A stretch of DNA of 64,000 nt, taken from NCBI GenBank assembly GCA_951406725.2, contig OX597822.1, forward strand, positions 93,930,001 to 93,994,000, given 5' to 3'. Of this stretch, positions 4,700 to 16,352 are shown piece after piece; positions within the stretch are counted from its first letter, which is position 1; every line of letters begins with the position of its first letter. Source of the stretch: Octopus vulgaris. Taxonomy: Eukaryota. A model generated the notes under the pieces. It made no database searches and was not told where the DNA came from. It was given only the letters and a program-made list of their open reading frames with translations. The translations under genes were made by a program, and so were the position numbers.

Positions 4700-6233
4700 G
4701 TACAAAAGCAGTAATTCTTGGGGGTGGGGTCTGTTAGTAGATACTCACTTAACTGATACTTCATTTTATCATATACGGAGAAATGAAAGGAAAATCTGAA
4801 GTCGGTGGAATTTGAACTTAGAACGTAAAAAATCGAGACAAATTCCGTAAAGCATTTTCTCGATGCTAAGACGGTTCTGCTAACACTCCACCCTAATATG
4901 CCTTTAATATTCAGAATCGGGAGCATGCCGGGAATAATGCTTAACGGCATTTCGTTCGTTATCACGTTCTGAGTTCAAACTCCGTCGAAGTCAACTTTGC
5001 CTTTCATCCTTTCGGAGGTCGATAAATCAAATACCAGTTGAACACTGGGGTCAATGTAATCGACTTAGCCCCTCCCCTGAACTTGCTGGCCTTGTGCCTA
5101 TATTTGAAACCAATATTCTTTCTAATTATCTCCAGTTTTTTAGCACAAGGCCAGTAATTTTGAGGGGGGAAATTGATTACATTTACTTCAGTACTCAAAT
5201 CGTACTGTATTTTATAGATTCCCGAAGAACAAAAGGTTGGCATTGGCGGAGTTTGAACTCAGAACCTAATAGTATAAAGAATCGAAAGAAATGCTGCTAA
5301 ACCTTTTATCCAATGTGCTAACGATTCTGTCAGTTCCCCACCTTGTCCTGATTTTAAAACTGGTTCAAAATTTTGGCACAAGGCTAGTCATTTCTGGGAG
5401 GAGTAAGTCGACAACGTCGACCCCGGTCCTCAACTAATACTTATTTTATCAACCGCCGAAAGGATGCAAGGTAAAGTCGACTTCGGTGGAATTTGAACTC
5501 AGAACTTCAAGACGGACGACATGCCGCGAAGAATTTTACCCAGCTTGGTGACGATTCTGCCAGCTCACCGCCTTACCTTCCTTTAACACTAATTTCAAAT
5601 TTTGGAACAAGGCCAGCAATTCCGTGGAAAGGTGTAGGTCGATTACATCGATCCCAGTGCTCAACTGGTACTTATTTTATCCTTTCGGGATCGATAAAAT
5701 AGTACTAGGGGATCGATATAATCGACTTACCCTCCCCCGGCAGTGCTGTCTTTGTGCCAAAATTTGAAACCAATATTTACCAGTGACAAATATGTTTTCT
5801 TTACTGCTCAATAATTTCTAATTTCTTTGTTGCCCACAAGGGGCTAAACATAGAGGGGACAAACAAAGACAGACAAAGCGATTAAGTCGATTACATCGAC
5901 CCCAGTGCATAACTGATACTTAATTTATCGACCCCGCAAGGATAAAAGGTAAAGTCGACCTCGGCGGAATTTGGACTCAGAACGTAAAGACAGACGAAAT
6001 ATCTATTTCTTTACTACCCATAAGGGGCTAAACACAGAGAGGTCAAACAAGGACAGACAAACGGATTAAGTCGATTATATCGACCCCAGTGCGTAACTGG
6101 TACTTATTTAATCGACCCCGAAAGGATGAAAGGCAAAGTCGACCTTGGCGGAATTTGAACTCAGAACGTAGCTGCAGGCGAAGTACGGCAACGAATTTCG
6201 CCCGGCGTGCTAACGTTTCTGCCAGCTCACCAT
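4700..6233. mobile_element. Cluster of about six Meta-domain SINE copies in both orientations, including a minus-strand dimer at 5820-6233
   Basis: Repeated gaaaggatgaaaggcaaagtcgacc and gcctttcatcctttcgg motifs with tRNA-like heads. Confidence 0.8.
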
Positions 6234-8986: not shown

Positions 8987-9180
8987 TTCGTGCTAGCTAG
9001 CTGAGCACGAACAATTTAATTCTCAGTAGGAGCAGATGATATCAGCTTATGATTACATGAAGGCTTTTCTCACATTTTAAAACTGGTTTACAGTGACTCG
9101 TAGACTTCTTCTGAATCGACCTACGCCCTTCCCTGAAATTGCTGACCTACCGAAATTTGAAGTCATTATCATTACGAAGA

Positions 9181-9578
9181 AGGCGGCGAGCTGGCAGAAA
9201 CGTTAGCACGCCGGGCGAAATGCGTAGCCATATTTCGCGTGCCGTTACGTTCTGAGTTCAAATTTCGCCGAGGTCGACTTTGCCTTTCATCCTTTCGGGG
9301 TCGATTAAATAAGTACCAGTTACGCACTGGGGTCGATATAATCGACTTAATCCGTTTGTCTGTCCTTGTTTGTCCTCTCTGTGTTTATCCCCTTGTGGGT
9401 AGTAAAGAAATAGGTATTTCGTCCATCTTTACGTTCTGAGTTCAAATTCCGCCGAGGTCGACTTTGCCTTTCTTCCTTTCGGGGTCGATAAATTAGGTAC
9501 CAGTGGAACACTGAGGTCGAAATAATCGACTATCCCTCTCCCCAACACTTCAGGCCTTGTGCCTATAGTAGAAAGGAT
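9181..9578 (+). mobile_element. Dimeric Meta-domain SINE
   Basis: Same head and agtaaagaaata|ggtatttcgtc junction as 1663-2215. Confidence 0.85.
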
Positions 9579-10306
9579 TAATATTATTTGTTGTTATTAT
9601 TGCTGAAAGCATTTTCCTCTTATGTCATTTCTGTAATTAAAAAGTAATTTTCACAATTAACATCAAAGTTATCAGTTTTGAGATGATAATATTTTACTGC
9701 TTGCTTTATTGAATGAGTCGACCCGTTCGTAGCACCATTCAGTTTGAGATGATATTTTGGTGAGTCCAATTTAGTTAAAATTTTCTGAACTGGGACAGAC
9801 CCCAAACCATTTTTAGACCTTTGAACATTTTGGAAGTATTCTCTTTGCACTTTACCGCTTCAAGATTCATATCAAAACAATGGAGATCTTCAGCCTACAG
9901 GTAAAATGAATCAATAGTTATGGGAATGTTTTCCATATATTTTATACGTGACTAATCAAGGAAAATTATTTCCCAAGCTTTACTAACTGGACAGGTATTT
10001 TGACTTGTGGCTTCTGAAAATCTAAATTTTTGACAATCTGAGCAAACTTAGTATATTGTTCGAATGAATGCAATGAACCAGGCTACTATGAATAACTTCT
10101 TTATCATTTTTGCTTTTTACCTTCCCTGTTTCTATGTCCTAAGGGTTATCGTTTATTTCCCCAAGAATGTTGTCGCTGAATCCGGGATAAAACTACCTGT
10201 TTTTATGATAGATCACATTATTTTCAACAAGTTGTCTTACAGCAATATTTTTAAAACAAGAACACTCAGAGAGCGCAAACCTCTGCCAAAGCAACACCAA
10301 TGTCCT

Positions 10307-12005
10307 TAATTTTTTATTACTCACAAGGGGCTAAAAATAGAAGTTATACATTACAAAGACAAAACAAAGCACATAATCGGGGAATTAAAAGTACAGAAAA
10401 ATCGAGTAAGGAAGAAAAAATAAAAAGAACGAATGAAAATATGAAAATGAATAAAATGAAGCGCAATGCTCACTCGACCCCCGAAGTCGAGTGGTTACAT
10501 TTAGTAATTATTTTGGACAGATTTTTCCCTCTTTTTTCCATTTTTTTTTTTAATCAAAAAGTTCACATCTACATTTTTTTAATATTGTTCATATCAGATT
10601 TTATATTTTTTTCTAAAATTTTTCAACTCTTCATGTTCAACCTCGGGCGACAGGGTATCATACAACACCGGCCCGTCAACCATAGTCACCAATTCTCCAT
10701 ACGAATCCATGAACTCGTCGTATCTATCGTCAGTTAATAGAACACACCTTTCATCCTCCTTGAATTTCTCCATGGGCAGCTTTACCCTTACTAATCCCTT
10801 CCACTTGGATATTCGGATCTTTTCGGTTTGAACGGCAGTTTTTAACATAATTTCTAGGTAACTAAAAATTTTAAACTTCGTATACTGGTAGAATGTGTTT
10901 ATAAAACATCTTTTTTCTTGGCTTTATTGAGAAAATTCTATAGTTTGTAAGATATTTGTTGTTTTTTTAACTTCAATTTCTGCAATTTCAACCAATAAAT
11001 GACGTCCATTGAGGTAAAAAAAACATTCTGTGTCGTATGAATATGTCCCTCGTTTAAGAAACAGATTGGGTTTATTTACATTCGTGAAGAAAAAAAGATA
11101 CCCTACCCCAAGATGGCCCGCGCCGGGGCACTGCGTCCCCACACGGCCTCCCACTCGGCACTCGCAGCAATTCGGCCGACGATCCCCAACAACAACCTTG
11201 AGGGACCCCCCCCTGCAACCTCCCGGCAATCTCCAAAGCTCTCGAAAGTGGCAAAAAGTCACATCTCGACACCGTATCCCCACTGGTTTAACACGCTCAC
11301 TCCTCCCACGGTCCCAACTGGGGACCTTCCGCCTCGGCGGCAGCCAGAACAGCTGCCGTCAACCACTCCGTCTCAACATCTGGTGGCACTCCTCTGACCC
11401 GAACCCGAACACCCCGCCCGCCCCCACACGTGGGCAGCAGCGTACCCCGCCGTTCATAGAACATTGGCGGAATGCGAGGCCGCCCCATCCCCGGCAGCAA
11501 ACCCCACCTCCACCGCTCCAAACTTCCTCCCTAATCACGGATCCCAAGCACTCCTCCACATCGTCCTCCGACAGCATCTCAATCCCACCGGCGGCGACCG
11601 CCCGCGTGCGACATACCACCGTCCAACCGCTCCCACTGCTGACCGTCCCCTCTTGAGGGACCAGCCCCACTGCGCCTCATTCCTTGCACAAACCGCTTGC
11701 CTCCCACCACCTCTTCCATATTCACCCTTATCCGCCTCGGCCCCAACGGTGCAGCTGCTCCCACCGCAGAGGCCCCTGTACAGCCTTCCACAATGAAAAG
11801 CCAAACTTTTCACCCCCACAATGGGGAGAAAAACGGCAAAAACACAACAGAATAAAACAACTACGCGCGAGTTGCTTCAACAATAATTTTCAACAGCAAT
11901 AAAAAAAAAAACAATTTCAAAAATGGACAGTCTCAAAGAGAAAGCCCTCAACAATCCAACCGTGGTTTAAAATGGCGAGACTCAAACAAACAAGTTGCTA
12001 CTCTG
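10307..12005 (-). mobile_element. ORF1-only (HAL1-like) non-LTR retroelement A, A-to-G hypermutated and interrupted by a MITE
   Basis: Minus-strand pieces RKFGAVEVGF..LLPTCGG.RGVRVRVRGVPPDVETEWL, NQWGYGVE, knuckle C-x2-C-x4-R-x4-C, C-terminal RISKWKGLVRVKL..; 3' tail cccttgtgagtaataaaaaa. No RT seen. Confidence 0.75.
10815..11110. mobile_element. Merlin-like MITE, truncated just before its telomeric tract, inside element A
   Basis: TIR starts at 10815; similarity ends at aaagataccctacccc. Confidence 0.85.
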
Positions 12006-12020
12006 AAACAGCGACGTCCT

Positions 12021-13926
12021 TATTTTTTTAATTAAGCACAAGGCCTCAATAGAGAAGGGACAACACAAAAACAGACAAAGCAATACATTGGGGTACATAG
12101 AAACACATATCGAATGAATTATGGATATAATGAAAATGAGAATGAAATGGCTTACTATATTACCCGTGGAACGATCGTACTGACGAGCCCTACGGACGAG
12201 GGATTACGTAAGTGATTCATTCGTTAATAGGCGAAATCGCGGTCTGCGATTAATTCTTGTTTTTTATATATAATTTTCATCTGTCATGCCCGCATATTGT
12301 TCTGGTGTCCGCTGAATTCTTTTCTCTTGAGAACATTCTTTTCTTTGTAGTTTTATCGTAGGTGATTTACTTCTAGCATATGGCTGACCACATAGTGGTT
12401 CTTTAGCCCGCCCCCATAAGTAGGTAGCTCCATTTTACTGTTTTTAAATGAACACTTCATATCGGTCTTGTATCTGTTGGTTTATAACATATACTCTATT
12501 AACTCTTCGAAGGCCACTACGGGCAGCACTTCATGGTAACCAATTTGTATTCCTGTCATCTCTATTCTTTCACCAAACAACTCCTTCAATTTCTCTTCCC
12601 TTTCTTTTTCCAACAAAAAGGGCTTTAAAACCTTCGTTATACTCTTCGGCCGCTAATTTCACTCGGATAACGTTCTTCATCTTGGCAATTCTCTTCTCTA
12701 TCTCTACACTTTTTTGGGTATTGCACCATTGTTCTCAGGTTTCTCCCTTTTAGTGTCACTCTCCTCTCCTCACCAATCTCCCCCTCTACCGCTGGCATTT
12801 CTGTCTATGTCTGCCTCTCATTCTGTGTTGCAATCATCTCTCTTTCATTTTCCTTTCTCTTCTGTACTCTTTCCTCCTCGCTAGTTAATGGTATCTGCGT
12901 TCGTTCCTCACATTTGCTGTCTTTTCATTTTTTCTCTTCTCATTTGTACTCTCTTGTTTTTCACTCTGCTTCTCCTCCCCACTTGCCTTTCTTTTCTTCC
13001 TCGGACTTTTTGGTGGTGAGTCATTACTCTTCTTTCTTTTTACCACTGTGTATTGCTCCTCCATTTTCTCCTCCTCCACGGTTACACCCTCTTCTTCATG
13101 ATATTCCTTTCCTGTCTCCTCCTCTTCGTGTTTCTGGGGACACTTCGTCCGGCAGTATCTGTTCCTCCGCAATCTTGTGGAGGTCTGGCAAGCTTATATG
13201 GACCAACACCTCCAGTCCATACCCCCAGCAGTTCACCACCGTAGTTCTCGATATTTTTATTATCTATGTGTCCTCCTCTGTGTTGAAGAGGATGGCTGTC
13301 ACCAGCCACGCCTCATCAATTTCTGGGAGCACTCTACTTATTCTTACTCTGGCCGCACGTTTGCCACAGTAAGTCGGTAATATTGCCCACTCCGCTGATC
13401 TCAAAGGCACAGTAGAGTATTTCCTCGCTTCTTCTTCGTTCACAAAGCGTACCTCCACTGTGCCGTATTTCCTTCCTCTGGTGTAGAACGTCGTTACGTT
13501 CTTAATTTATCCGAAGCATTCCTCGACTTTTTTGTTTCAATTTTCAATGTTCTGTACACCATTGTTACTATATCCTTTTTATCTGTTACTTCTTTGTGGG
13601 GCGTCAACCTCAGGCTGTCTCCCTCTTTTTTCGATAACTCATTGAATTTCTAAAAATCCTTCTCCTGTAATTCAATTTCTGTAACTTGCAGTCCCTCCGC
13701 TGACAGGCGTTTGCCAGTCACCGCAGCGTAACTGCTCGCTTGCACTAGTGTATCTTCCATAATGTTCACAACTTCATCCACAAATGGAGAAGAAGACTGA
13801 AAACGGTAACAATAAGTTCAACAGGTAACAACAATCCAACAATTCAATGAATATCAGTTAAACAAAAGCGGTACTCACAAGGAGCCTGTACTTTTCCAAT
13901 TCACTAACTCAATAAAACACTAACGA
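12021..13926 (-). mobile_element. ORF1-only (HAL1-like) non-LTR retroelement B, degenerate ORF from ATG at 13760
   Basis: MEDTLVQASSYAAVT..RKYGTVEVRF..ILPTYCGKRAARVRISRVLPEIDEAWL..NCWGYGLE, K/E-rich linker, C-terminal RIAKMKNVIRVKL..; A-rich 3' tail at 12021. Flanked by target copies at 12006-12020 and 13927-13941. Confidence 0.78.
12173..12251 (+). ncRNA. Type I hammerhead ribozyme
   Basis: Stem I GATCGTA/TGCGATT; core CTGACGA at 12180-12186; long stem II GCC..GGC capped by GATTAC-GTAA-GTGATT; GAAA at 12233-12236; near-palindromic stem III ATCGCGGT; GTC triplet with predicted cleavage after 12244. Confidence 0.8.
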
Positions 13927-14150
13927 CAACACCAACGTCCTCTCAACGATTAGCTGGAGAGGATTTTTGAAATGAGAATATCTGAAATAAACTCGACTGT
14001 TCTCACAAACGGAAATACTAAAAATGAACCCGACCGCTCTCAAAAATTAAGTAAAAAACGAAAACTAATCCAGAATCCTTGTCCGGTATCGGATCGATCC
14101 CAAAATCTAATCAGTTCGTTCCAGTCACGAGGCCAAGCATTCCTGAAAGT

Positions 14151-14457
14151 ACGTGATTCCTGTTGTTTATTGAAAAGTATTGTGATTCGTTGGAAATAAA
14201 GAGACACAAAGGGGAATGTGAACTGTGGAAAGTAGACTTTAACGAAGAAAAACTACCACAGTTTATAGAATATAAAGAACTTTAAAAAAGGTGTGGGGTA
14301 GACATAATGGAGAACAGAAAAAAGGAAGCAAGTTATGTTACTCGATGGGGCAAGTTTTCATTTCACATTTTTTCATCTTTCATTATATCATACGTTTTAT
14401 GTCCCCCAATGTGATATATGTCCCTCTTTGTTGGCCCGTTATGGGTAATAAAAAAAT
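14151..14457 (+). mobile_element. 5'-truncated copy of the same L1/HAL1-like family (3' UTR and tail)
   Basis: 17-bp TSD CAAGCATTCCTGAAAGT / CAAGCATCCTTGAAAGT at 14134-14150 and 14458-14474. UTR ttcattatatcat..tatgtcccccaatgt matches the UTR of element B. Confidence 0.7.
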
Positions 14458-14958
14458 CAAGCATCCTTGAAAGTTTCATCTGAATCCATCCAGCGGTTCT
14501 TGAGATATCTTGTCCACAGACAAACAAACAAACACGACTGAAAACAATACCACCCGCCTTCTCTAAGGCGGAAGTTATAAAACTACAGTCGCTACTTGAA
14601 TTTTCGAACCTGGAACTGTTTTTTCCCCGTCATCGCGTACGTTATTCGAAATTTGAATCGCTAGTTCCACCAGCAGTTCGAATTTTATAGGTTAATACAA
14701 ATTACGCTTATGTTAGGCTTGTGAATTGCAGGGAAGGCACGGTTTCTACAAGACACTATGAACATTAATCTATACTAATATTTTTCACAATATGTGGCCA
14801 GTCCAAACTGAAGCGGGAAATAGATCAGATGGAAGCAGAAAAACTGCAGAATAGAATGAAACCACTGTTGAAACACCTCCCCTACATCTTGTAGCCCTAG
14901 ATTAACGTTAGAAAACGCCGAATAAGTATTTGGTAAATCAGATATATAGGCAATCTTT

Positions 14959-15397
14959 GGATCTTTTCGGTTTGAACGGCAGTTTTTAACATAATTTCTA
15001 GGTAACTAAAAAATTTTAAACTTCGTATACTGGTAGAATGTGTTTATAAAACATCTTTTTCTCTTGGCTTTCTTGAGAAAATTCTGTAGTTTGTAACATA
15101 TTTGTTGTTTAATTTCTTGCATTTCGGCAATTTCAACCAATCGATGACGTCCATTGAGGTAAAATACATTCTGTGCCGTATGAATATGTCTCTGGTTTAA
15201 GAAACAGATTGGGTTTATTTACATTTGTGAAGAAAAAAAGATACCCTTCCCCCCACCCCTAACCCTAACCCTAACCCTAACTAACCCTAACCCTAAAACA
15301 GATTGAAATGCAATAGATCAATACTAGAGTCATAATTATGGGTGACAATTTCATATGACACCGCTAGAAAAAACTGCCGTTCAAACCGAAAAGATCC
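14959..15397. mobile_element. Merlin-like telomeric-repeat MITE, complete
   Basis: TIRs at both ends; 8-bp TSD CAATCTTT at 14951-14958 and 15398-15405; (CCCTAA)n around 15257-15296. Confidence 0.92.
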
Positions 15398-16352
15398 CAA
15401 TCTTTTTTCGAGACGAGACTCATTTAATGTGCTTTAATAAAAATTACATTTTTTTTTACTGAAATTCCGGGAGAAGGGTCTAATTGATTACATCAACCAC
15501 CAGTGCTTGACTGGTACTTAATTTATCGACTCTGAAAGGATGAAAGGCAAAGTCGACCTCGGCAAAATTTGAGCTCAGAACGTAAAACCGGAAGAAATGC
15601 CAATAACCATTTTACTTGGCGTAATAACGATTTTGCTAGTTCGCCGCTTTGACCGAAATTATGACAAAAAGTAAACACGTTGTTGTTGTTGTTGTGATTG
15701 ATATTGCTTCACCGAAGTTATATCACAGTTCAATTAATTCTTACTGACTTCTAAATTTTCTTCGTGAATGCTCGCTTTCCTGTTAGCAAATGAAGCATCG
15801 GTGTTATATTGTTGCAGCTAATTATGTTAAGTTACCACATTCTGAACCTGGATGATTGCAAAGGAAATCCAACACTTTCATTTTCATATTTCATATTTCC
15901 AGAACACAATCCTGACATGGAGTCAGTTTAATTATATCTTGCTCGGGGTTTTCCGTTAATTAATTGAATTTAAAAGATGCTGCTTGCAAATTTATTCTTA
16001 AAATAATAGCATTTCATGACTCAATGTCACGTTGCTTGGTTTCCATTAATTTCAATTTATGTTGTTATTAATTTTTTGCAGCTATTATTGATTTTTCTAT
16101 TTGTATATGAAGTAGGCGGGAAAAGCATGTATTTGAATTTTCACAATGGCTTAAACATCACATGTGGACAAGAAGAGAGATTTCTTTCCTGTCCTTTTCT
16201 ATTTTCAGCTTCATCATCCATCCCAAATTAGTTTGGCTTCAAATTGCATTGACCATATGGCTTCTGTTTGACTATTCAAAATGGAAGGATTTTTCTGACA
16301 TCTTCGTTACTAGTTTACCGGGTTTTAAGTTCAAGCAGAGAGATCGTGTTTT

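Follow-up and report, generated by a model that had tools for sequence, protein, structure and literature searches.

A hammerhead motif of Octopus vulgaris within a 254-bp fragment of a 550-bp repeat, inserted into one copy of element B

Non-LTR retrozymes of metazoans, as described in PMC7229834 and 10.64898/2026.07.22.740005, are non-coding units of low GC content with one type I hammerhead, occur both as tandem arrays and as dispersed monomers, lack LTRs and share their genomes with Penelope-like elements (PLEs). The same combination is found for the 550-bp repeat of Octopus vulgaris reported here, a 254-bp fragment of which interrupts one copy of another element, termed B. The unit length of 550 nt exceeds the 170-400 nt given for invertebrate retrozymes in PMC7229834 but lies within the 51-972 bp range of the 2026 survey (10.64898/2026.07.22.740005). 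A criterion for retrozymes is that two or more adjacent units of a tandem repeat each bear a type I hammerhead, an arrangement present in an array of 18.7 units. Unlike described retrozymes, the 550-bp unit has a helix II much longer than 4 bp, showed no homology to PLE pseudo-LTRs, and is known here from genome sequence.

Hammerheads are also harbored by the pseudo-LTRs of PLEs (PMC4209133); there, as in the octopus repeat, helix III is short and palindromic and lends itself to dimer formation. Contrary to these, no ORF is attached to the 550-bp unit in the copies sampled, and the helix I of 4-5 pairs of the minimal hammerheads contrasts with 5-7 pairs plus a further extension in the octopus repeat. 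Hammerheads with a weak helix III need a dimer (PMC4209133), and of nine Xenopus retrozyme dimers assayed in 10.64898/2026.07.22.740005, a single one cleaved. PLE insertions, as described in 10.1101/2021.04.23.441226, resemble the dispersed octopus copies in 5′ truncation, partial tandems, an inverted 5′ arm, microsatellite targets and no clear target duplication. From cephalopods, 235 Rfam hammerhead matches are on record for the giant squid (PMC6962438); a retrozyme description was not found in literature searches for this lineage, with the supplements of PMC7229834 and bioRxiv outside this scope. The 550-bp repeat family is new, the class of retrozymes already known.

The hammerhead motif and the fragment that carries it

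In the window, i.e. the complete 64-kb stretch of DNA analyzed, scanning of both strands with a type I descriptor gave a single match, the hammerhead at 12168-12257. The locus is organized as follows.

12007-12155, minus strand: 3′ part of the 3′ UTR of B, left of the insert.
12156-12409, plus strand: 254-bp fragment of the 550-bp hammerhead repeat (unit positions 1-254 as numbered here) in one B copy; 29 loci match, junctions unique.
12168-12257, plus strand: type I hammerhead motif with extended helix I (12168-12171 with 12254-12257; 12173-12179 with 12245-12251).
12180-12186, plus strand: catalytic core CUGACGA, read from the sequence; its six fixed positions are 98-100% conserved.
12187-12232, plus strand: helix II, long and irregular, with the distal loop GUAA at 12208-12211 (AUAA in many copies).
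12233-12244, plus strand: GAAA (12233-12236), weak self-complementary helix III (12236-12243) and predicted cut after C12244.
12410-14150, minus strand: rest of B, comprising 3′ UTR and a decayed ORF1-like frame with a CCHC zinc knuckle; 5′ limit approximate.

The motif combines the CUGANGA, GAAA and NUH elements of type I with a G10.1-C11.1 pair (12187-12232) and an open helix I; U16.1 corresponds to 12243 and C17 to 12244. The coordinates and the intact core (CUGACGA, GAAA) of the preliminary description agree with the sequence, and so do its 7-bp stem I, two pairs of which are G-U, and its near-palindromic stem III, the segment AUCGCGGU (12236-12243) being self-complementary as a dimer with -8.9 kcal/mol. 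Helix III itself amounts to 2 pairs, A-U and U-G only. The term canonical, which had been used for the motif, is generous with respect to helix II, where a bulged C is followed by a long irregular stem, to the missing Rfam match and to the GNRA loop, which the family does not conserve. Internal loops are present in helices I and II. The covariance search that had been proposed gave 0 matches to the Rfam hammerhead models at the gathering score in the 64-kb window, and no hammerhead is among the 9 weak Rfam matches in 9000-15000, probably because of the long helix II.

In the minimum-energy fold predicted for the window copy, the core is paired with the helix III strand (-29.9 kcal/mol, vs -18.9 kcal/mol for the hammerhead fold), and the predicted pairing probability of helix III is at most 0.07 in every variant folded. 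Such a core-sequestering fold is also favored in most family variants, so that folding alone does not set the window copy apart. As the window holds this one hammerhead only, a nearby partner for a dimer is missing. With its predicted misfold, its isolation and its weak helix III, the window copy is probably a poorly active fossil; being alone and having a helix III of two pairs, it probably would cut poorly and be of no effect for B.

Searching the genome (2.8 Gb) with 12100-12330 yielded 737 candidates, 40 of which were scored, and all of the 43 resulting matches except the window begin at about 12156. In twenty-nine other loci, similarity at 87-94% identity sets in at 12156 and ends near 12409, the flanks being unrelated. 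Of 29 B loci examined for the insertion site two do not reach it, and each of the 27 other copies spanning it displays the empty site (insert in 0/27). With the covariance model R1, built from 79 copies, the window reaches 116 bits, and no match in 48 partly overlapping B loci has an E value below 0.06. Patterns for the left and the right junction, with up to 2 mismatches allowed, have one genome match each. The empty joined form, leading from about 12153-12156 straight to 12411-12433, is found in contigs of three other runs; contigs bridging the window junctions are not among the matches listed. A weak match to the insert (68%) in locus L047 is located about 1.3 kb away from the insertion site. 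Eleven of the 254 positions of the window copy depart from the column majority, and the copy closest to it shares 93% identity. The hammerhead is a passenger in a one-off fragment of a separate repeat and not a part of B.

The suggestion of an inserted PLE or retrozyme fragment, one of two made beforehand, was correct as to the kind of insert but not as to its size, 254 bp instead of roughly 100 bp, or its site: the TATAT presumed to be the target lies inside the 550-bp repeat unit and is ruled out as an insertion target. The window junctions lack both a target duplication and a microsatellite, and microhomology extends over 2-3 bases (TA common on the left, CCC on the right); compared with a close allele, B is short of about 6 bases. 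The junctions do not display the footprint of PLEs, and this atypical set of features suggests capture at a break in B. Capture through B's own reverse transcription, which would need antisense retrozyme RNA as template, is not favored.

Array, conservation and dispersed copies of the 550-bp repeat

The repeat forms an array of 18.7 copies with a period of 550 at G000:C2:212.109-212.119 Mb, which contains the 550-bp unit alone; its units are about 83% alike, and consecutive ones carry an intact hammerhead core. The unit has a GC content of 33-36%, no LTR and no coding frame of at least 150 aa. A 17-mer from the ribozyme has 94 exact genome matches (control: 0), so that at least 94 copies bear the hammerhead. 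As 40 of the 79 copies aligned contain this 17-mer, their number is suggested to be about 185, probably about 200, and more when diverged ones are included; a 28-mer pattern, being too tight, retrieved just 20 matches. Hammerhead-like descriptor matches in the flanks of three loci (L108:596, L115:441, L111:537) are unrelated to the 550-bp family and may represent further families or chance.

Of 80 family copies, 64 retain an intact core and 16 have a broken one. Conservation amounts to 97.5% at core positions and to 93.9% elsewhere in the insert, over 87 alignments in which some loci figure twice. Helices I-III hold in 93% of cells across copies, and 16 copies show a clear two-sided exchange between G-C and A-U in helix I. 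Five pairs show two-sided change, which among these related copies is not above shuffles (287/500). In four variants helix III is self-complementary throughout, with dimers predicted at -8 to -14 kcal/mol and no stable hairpin predicted; a central GC/UA swap fits a dimer but traces to one subfamily event with a chance of about one third of keeping self-complementarity. The distal loop of the intact copies is GUAA in 28 and AUAA in 18 of 64, so the GNRA tetraloop of the preliminary description, present as GUAA in the window, is not a fixed feature of the family and is ruled out as a functional signature. Four of 13 array units, folded as circles, gave predicted z values of -1.8 to -4.7 (20 shuffles each). 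Parts of the unit are covered by contigs of runs whose RNA nature is a guess, which speaks neither for nor against expression; their dip in depth 5′ of the cut site is likewise found in probable DNA runs.

Outside the array, 52 distinct dispersed loci were compared, which are the best matches to two queries and hence biased in lengths and end classes. Their 3′ ends are at fixed points in 49/52, namely at unit position 255-272 in 31 and at 360-392 in 18 loci, and a TA or CA microsatellite follows within 34 nt in 50/52, compared to a background of 761/2600 (29%). The 5′ ends vary, and 27 of the 52 copies extend beyond a single unit, crossing the cut site. An inverted arm is present in 22/52 loci, in all 22 on the 5′ side. 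In the 14 inverted-arm loci with both ends fixed, the two arms end at opposite end points in 14/14, where an independent choice of end point would give opposite points in about half per locus.

Taken as a whole, these data very probably mean that 254 bp of a non-coding 550-bp repeat distinct from B entered the B copy of the window once, with the repeat itself likely being a non-LTR retrozyme copied by a PLE enzyme. That the 550-bp unit instead belongs, as pseudo-LTR or 3′ UTR, to an autonomous PLE outside the sample, the copies being truncated ends of this PLE, is improbable. The insertion anatomy of the dispersed copies is indeed that of PLEs (compared with 10.1101/2021.04.23.441226), and of 57 retrozyme families of Xenopus 24 correspond to known repeats, almost all of them PLEs (10.64898/2026.07.22.740005). 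However, no RT plus GIY-YIG ORF flanks the unit in the dispersed loci or the array sampled; upstream of the unit, the loci examined contain the unit again or unrelated flank, with a longest arm of 825 nt, and the array lacks any other sequence. The one PLE fragment adjoining a copy is located 3′ of it, beyond the microsatellite, and does not match the copy. Less probable still is a plain satellite now spread at the DNA level, with the ribozyme a dead relic family-wide. The predicted misfold, the broken cores and the divergence of the array units would agree with it, but the combination of fixed 3′ ends with variable 5′ ends, together with the inverted arms, speaks for an RNA intermediate, the core is better kept than its surroundings, and helix III remains self-complementary in the four variants.

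Element B, its neighbor A and RNA editing

Minus-sense open frames and a CCHC knuckle in other B copies (best E 0.0006, just under the Pfam cut-off) place B on the minus strand, and its frame ends near 12470; the hammerhead hence lies antisense in the 3′ UTR of B, as the preliminary description had it. B seems to encode an ORF1-like zinc-knuckle protein alone and forms head-to-tail tandems (window 12007-14150; L135, L137, L140). It shares its 3′ end with A, and the end of B resembles by eye that of a short repeat whose tail is at window 5845-5885. An A-like element just 3′ of a B copy is also found at L054:1934-3357, in the same arrangement as in the window (A at 10250-11850). Several copies of a 450-bp repeat are scattered over the window (at 10809-11109, at 14952-15408 and at five further places), one of which interrupts A; the copy at 14952 includes a (TAACCC)n-like run at about 15256-15296.

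The earlier contrast between A and B opposed the ribozyme of B to a mere hairpin of A at the equivalent position (10471-10493). Folding of 21 of the 25 empty-site B segments showed that 19/21 form a hairpin of their own where A has its one, which removes this contrast and means that the insert broke the native hairpin of B. Moreover, A aligns with B solely at the 3′ end, so that the two are not a matched pair. Compared to a distant relative of 68% identity, A is skewed towards A-to-G (77 vs 28 G-to-A).

Among B copies without the ribozyme, an A-to-G excess is seen in 0/19 for the 5′ part and in 3/28 for the 3′ part. In these three hyperedited copies of the B family (L049, L058, L061), 25/35, 24/44 and 27/45 changes on the sense strand are A-to-G, the pattern to be expected when RNA edited by ADAR is reverse-transcribed into the genome. 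The B copy of the window has no A-to-G excess, like most B copies.

It had also been speculated that the hammerhead is integral to B, where it would cut antisense RNA and so limit ADAR editing; the antisense position, the unedited window copy, the existence of some B-family editing and the skew of A agree with this idea, be the motif integral or co-opted, but with the motif in the window alone among 48 B loci and absent from all 27 other copies spanning the site, an outcome named beforehand as refuting, with unique junctions, with most ribozyme-free copies unedited, with a broken B frame in the window, and with both pieces of an antisense RNA cut once near its end presumably still able to pair, it has almost no probability left.

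A Penelope-like element as candidate helper

The PLE fragment next to one repeat copy led to an abundant resident PLE family, which is young (7703 candidates, open frames up to 1312 aa). The frame has RT, helix-turn-helix and GIY-YIG look-alikes at 0.96-0.97; Pfam gave no match on the whole frame, and RVT_1 remained below the cut-off (E 0.0016). From its DKSG, YVDD and linker cysteine motifs we take the element to be of Neptune type (compare 10.1101/2021.04.23.441226). Members are located at L127:2942-7612 (G000:C15:42.99 Mb) and at L096-L131, inserted at TA repeats. The 3′ UTR contains a minimal hammerhead-like motif in sense orientation, in which core A9 is replaced by C in 40/40 matches (CUGAUGC in 36), 127 and 186 nt before the two fixed ends of the PLE.

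No DNA similarity was detectable between this PLE and the 550-bp repeat, and with one PLE family compared it is a candidate helper only. Nevertheless, the PLE has two fixed ends at TA repeats as well, which are opposite ends in 16/17 two-armed loci, and the identical two-end footprint makes this PLE or a relative the likely helper.

By analogy to known retrozymes, the tandem copies of the likely retrozyme would be transcribed, the multimer would be cut by its hammerheads into 550-nt units, probably via a helix III formed by two ribozymes, and the units would be circularized. The ends of the copies further suggest that the reverse transcriptase and endonuclease of the PLE would nick TA/CA microsatellites and that cDNA synthesis would start from two set positions on the RNA, roughly 175 and 290 nt beyond the cut, with each target strand using its own. 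It is conceivable, if somewhat short of an even chance, that a retrozyme dissimilar in sequence to its seeming PLE mover is twin-primed just as the latter is. The two strands of a nicked TA microsatellite would then always take different ones of the two fixed priming sites that one circular or multimeric RNA offers downstream of its hammerhead cut. A literature search for twin priming with Penelope-like elements and microsatellites found nothing on this subject.

The locus itself is an ordinary nested insertion, and the repeat family adds a likely retrozyme from the cephalopod lineage. The two-end footprint shared with a resident PLE renders the proposed, unproven partnership between PLEs and retrozymes testable. 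If true, twin priming would provide a sequence-level rule for template choice and integration by the PLE enzyme.
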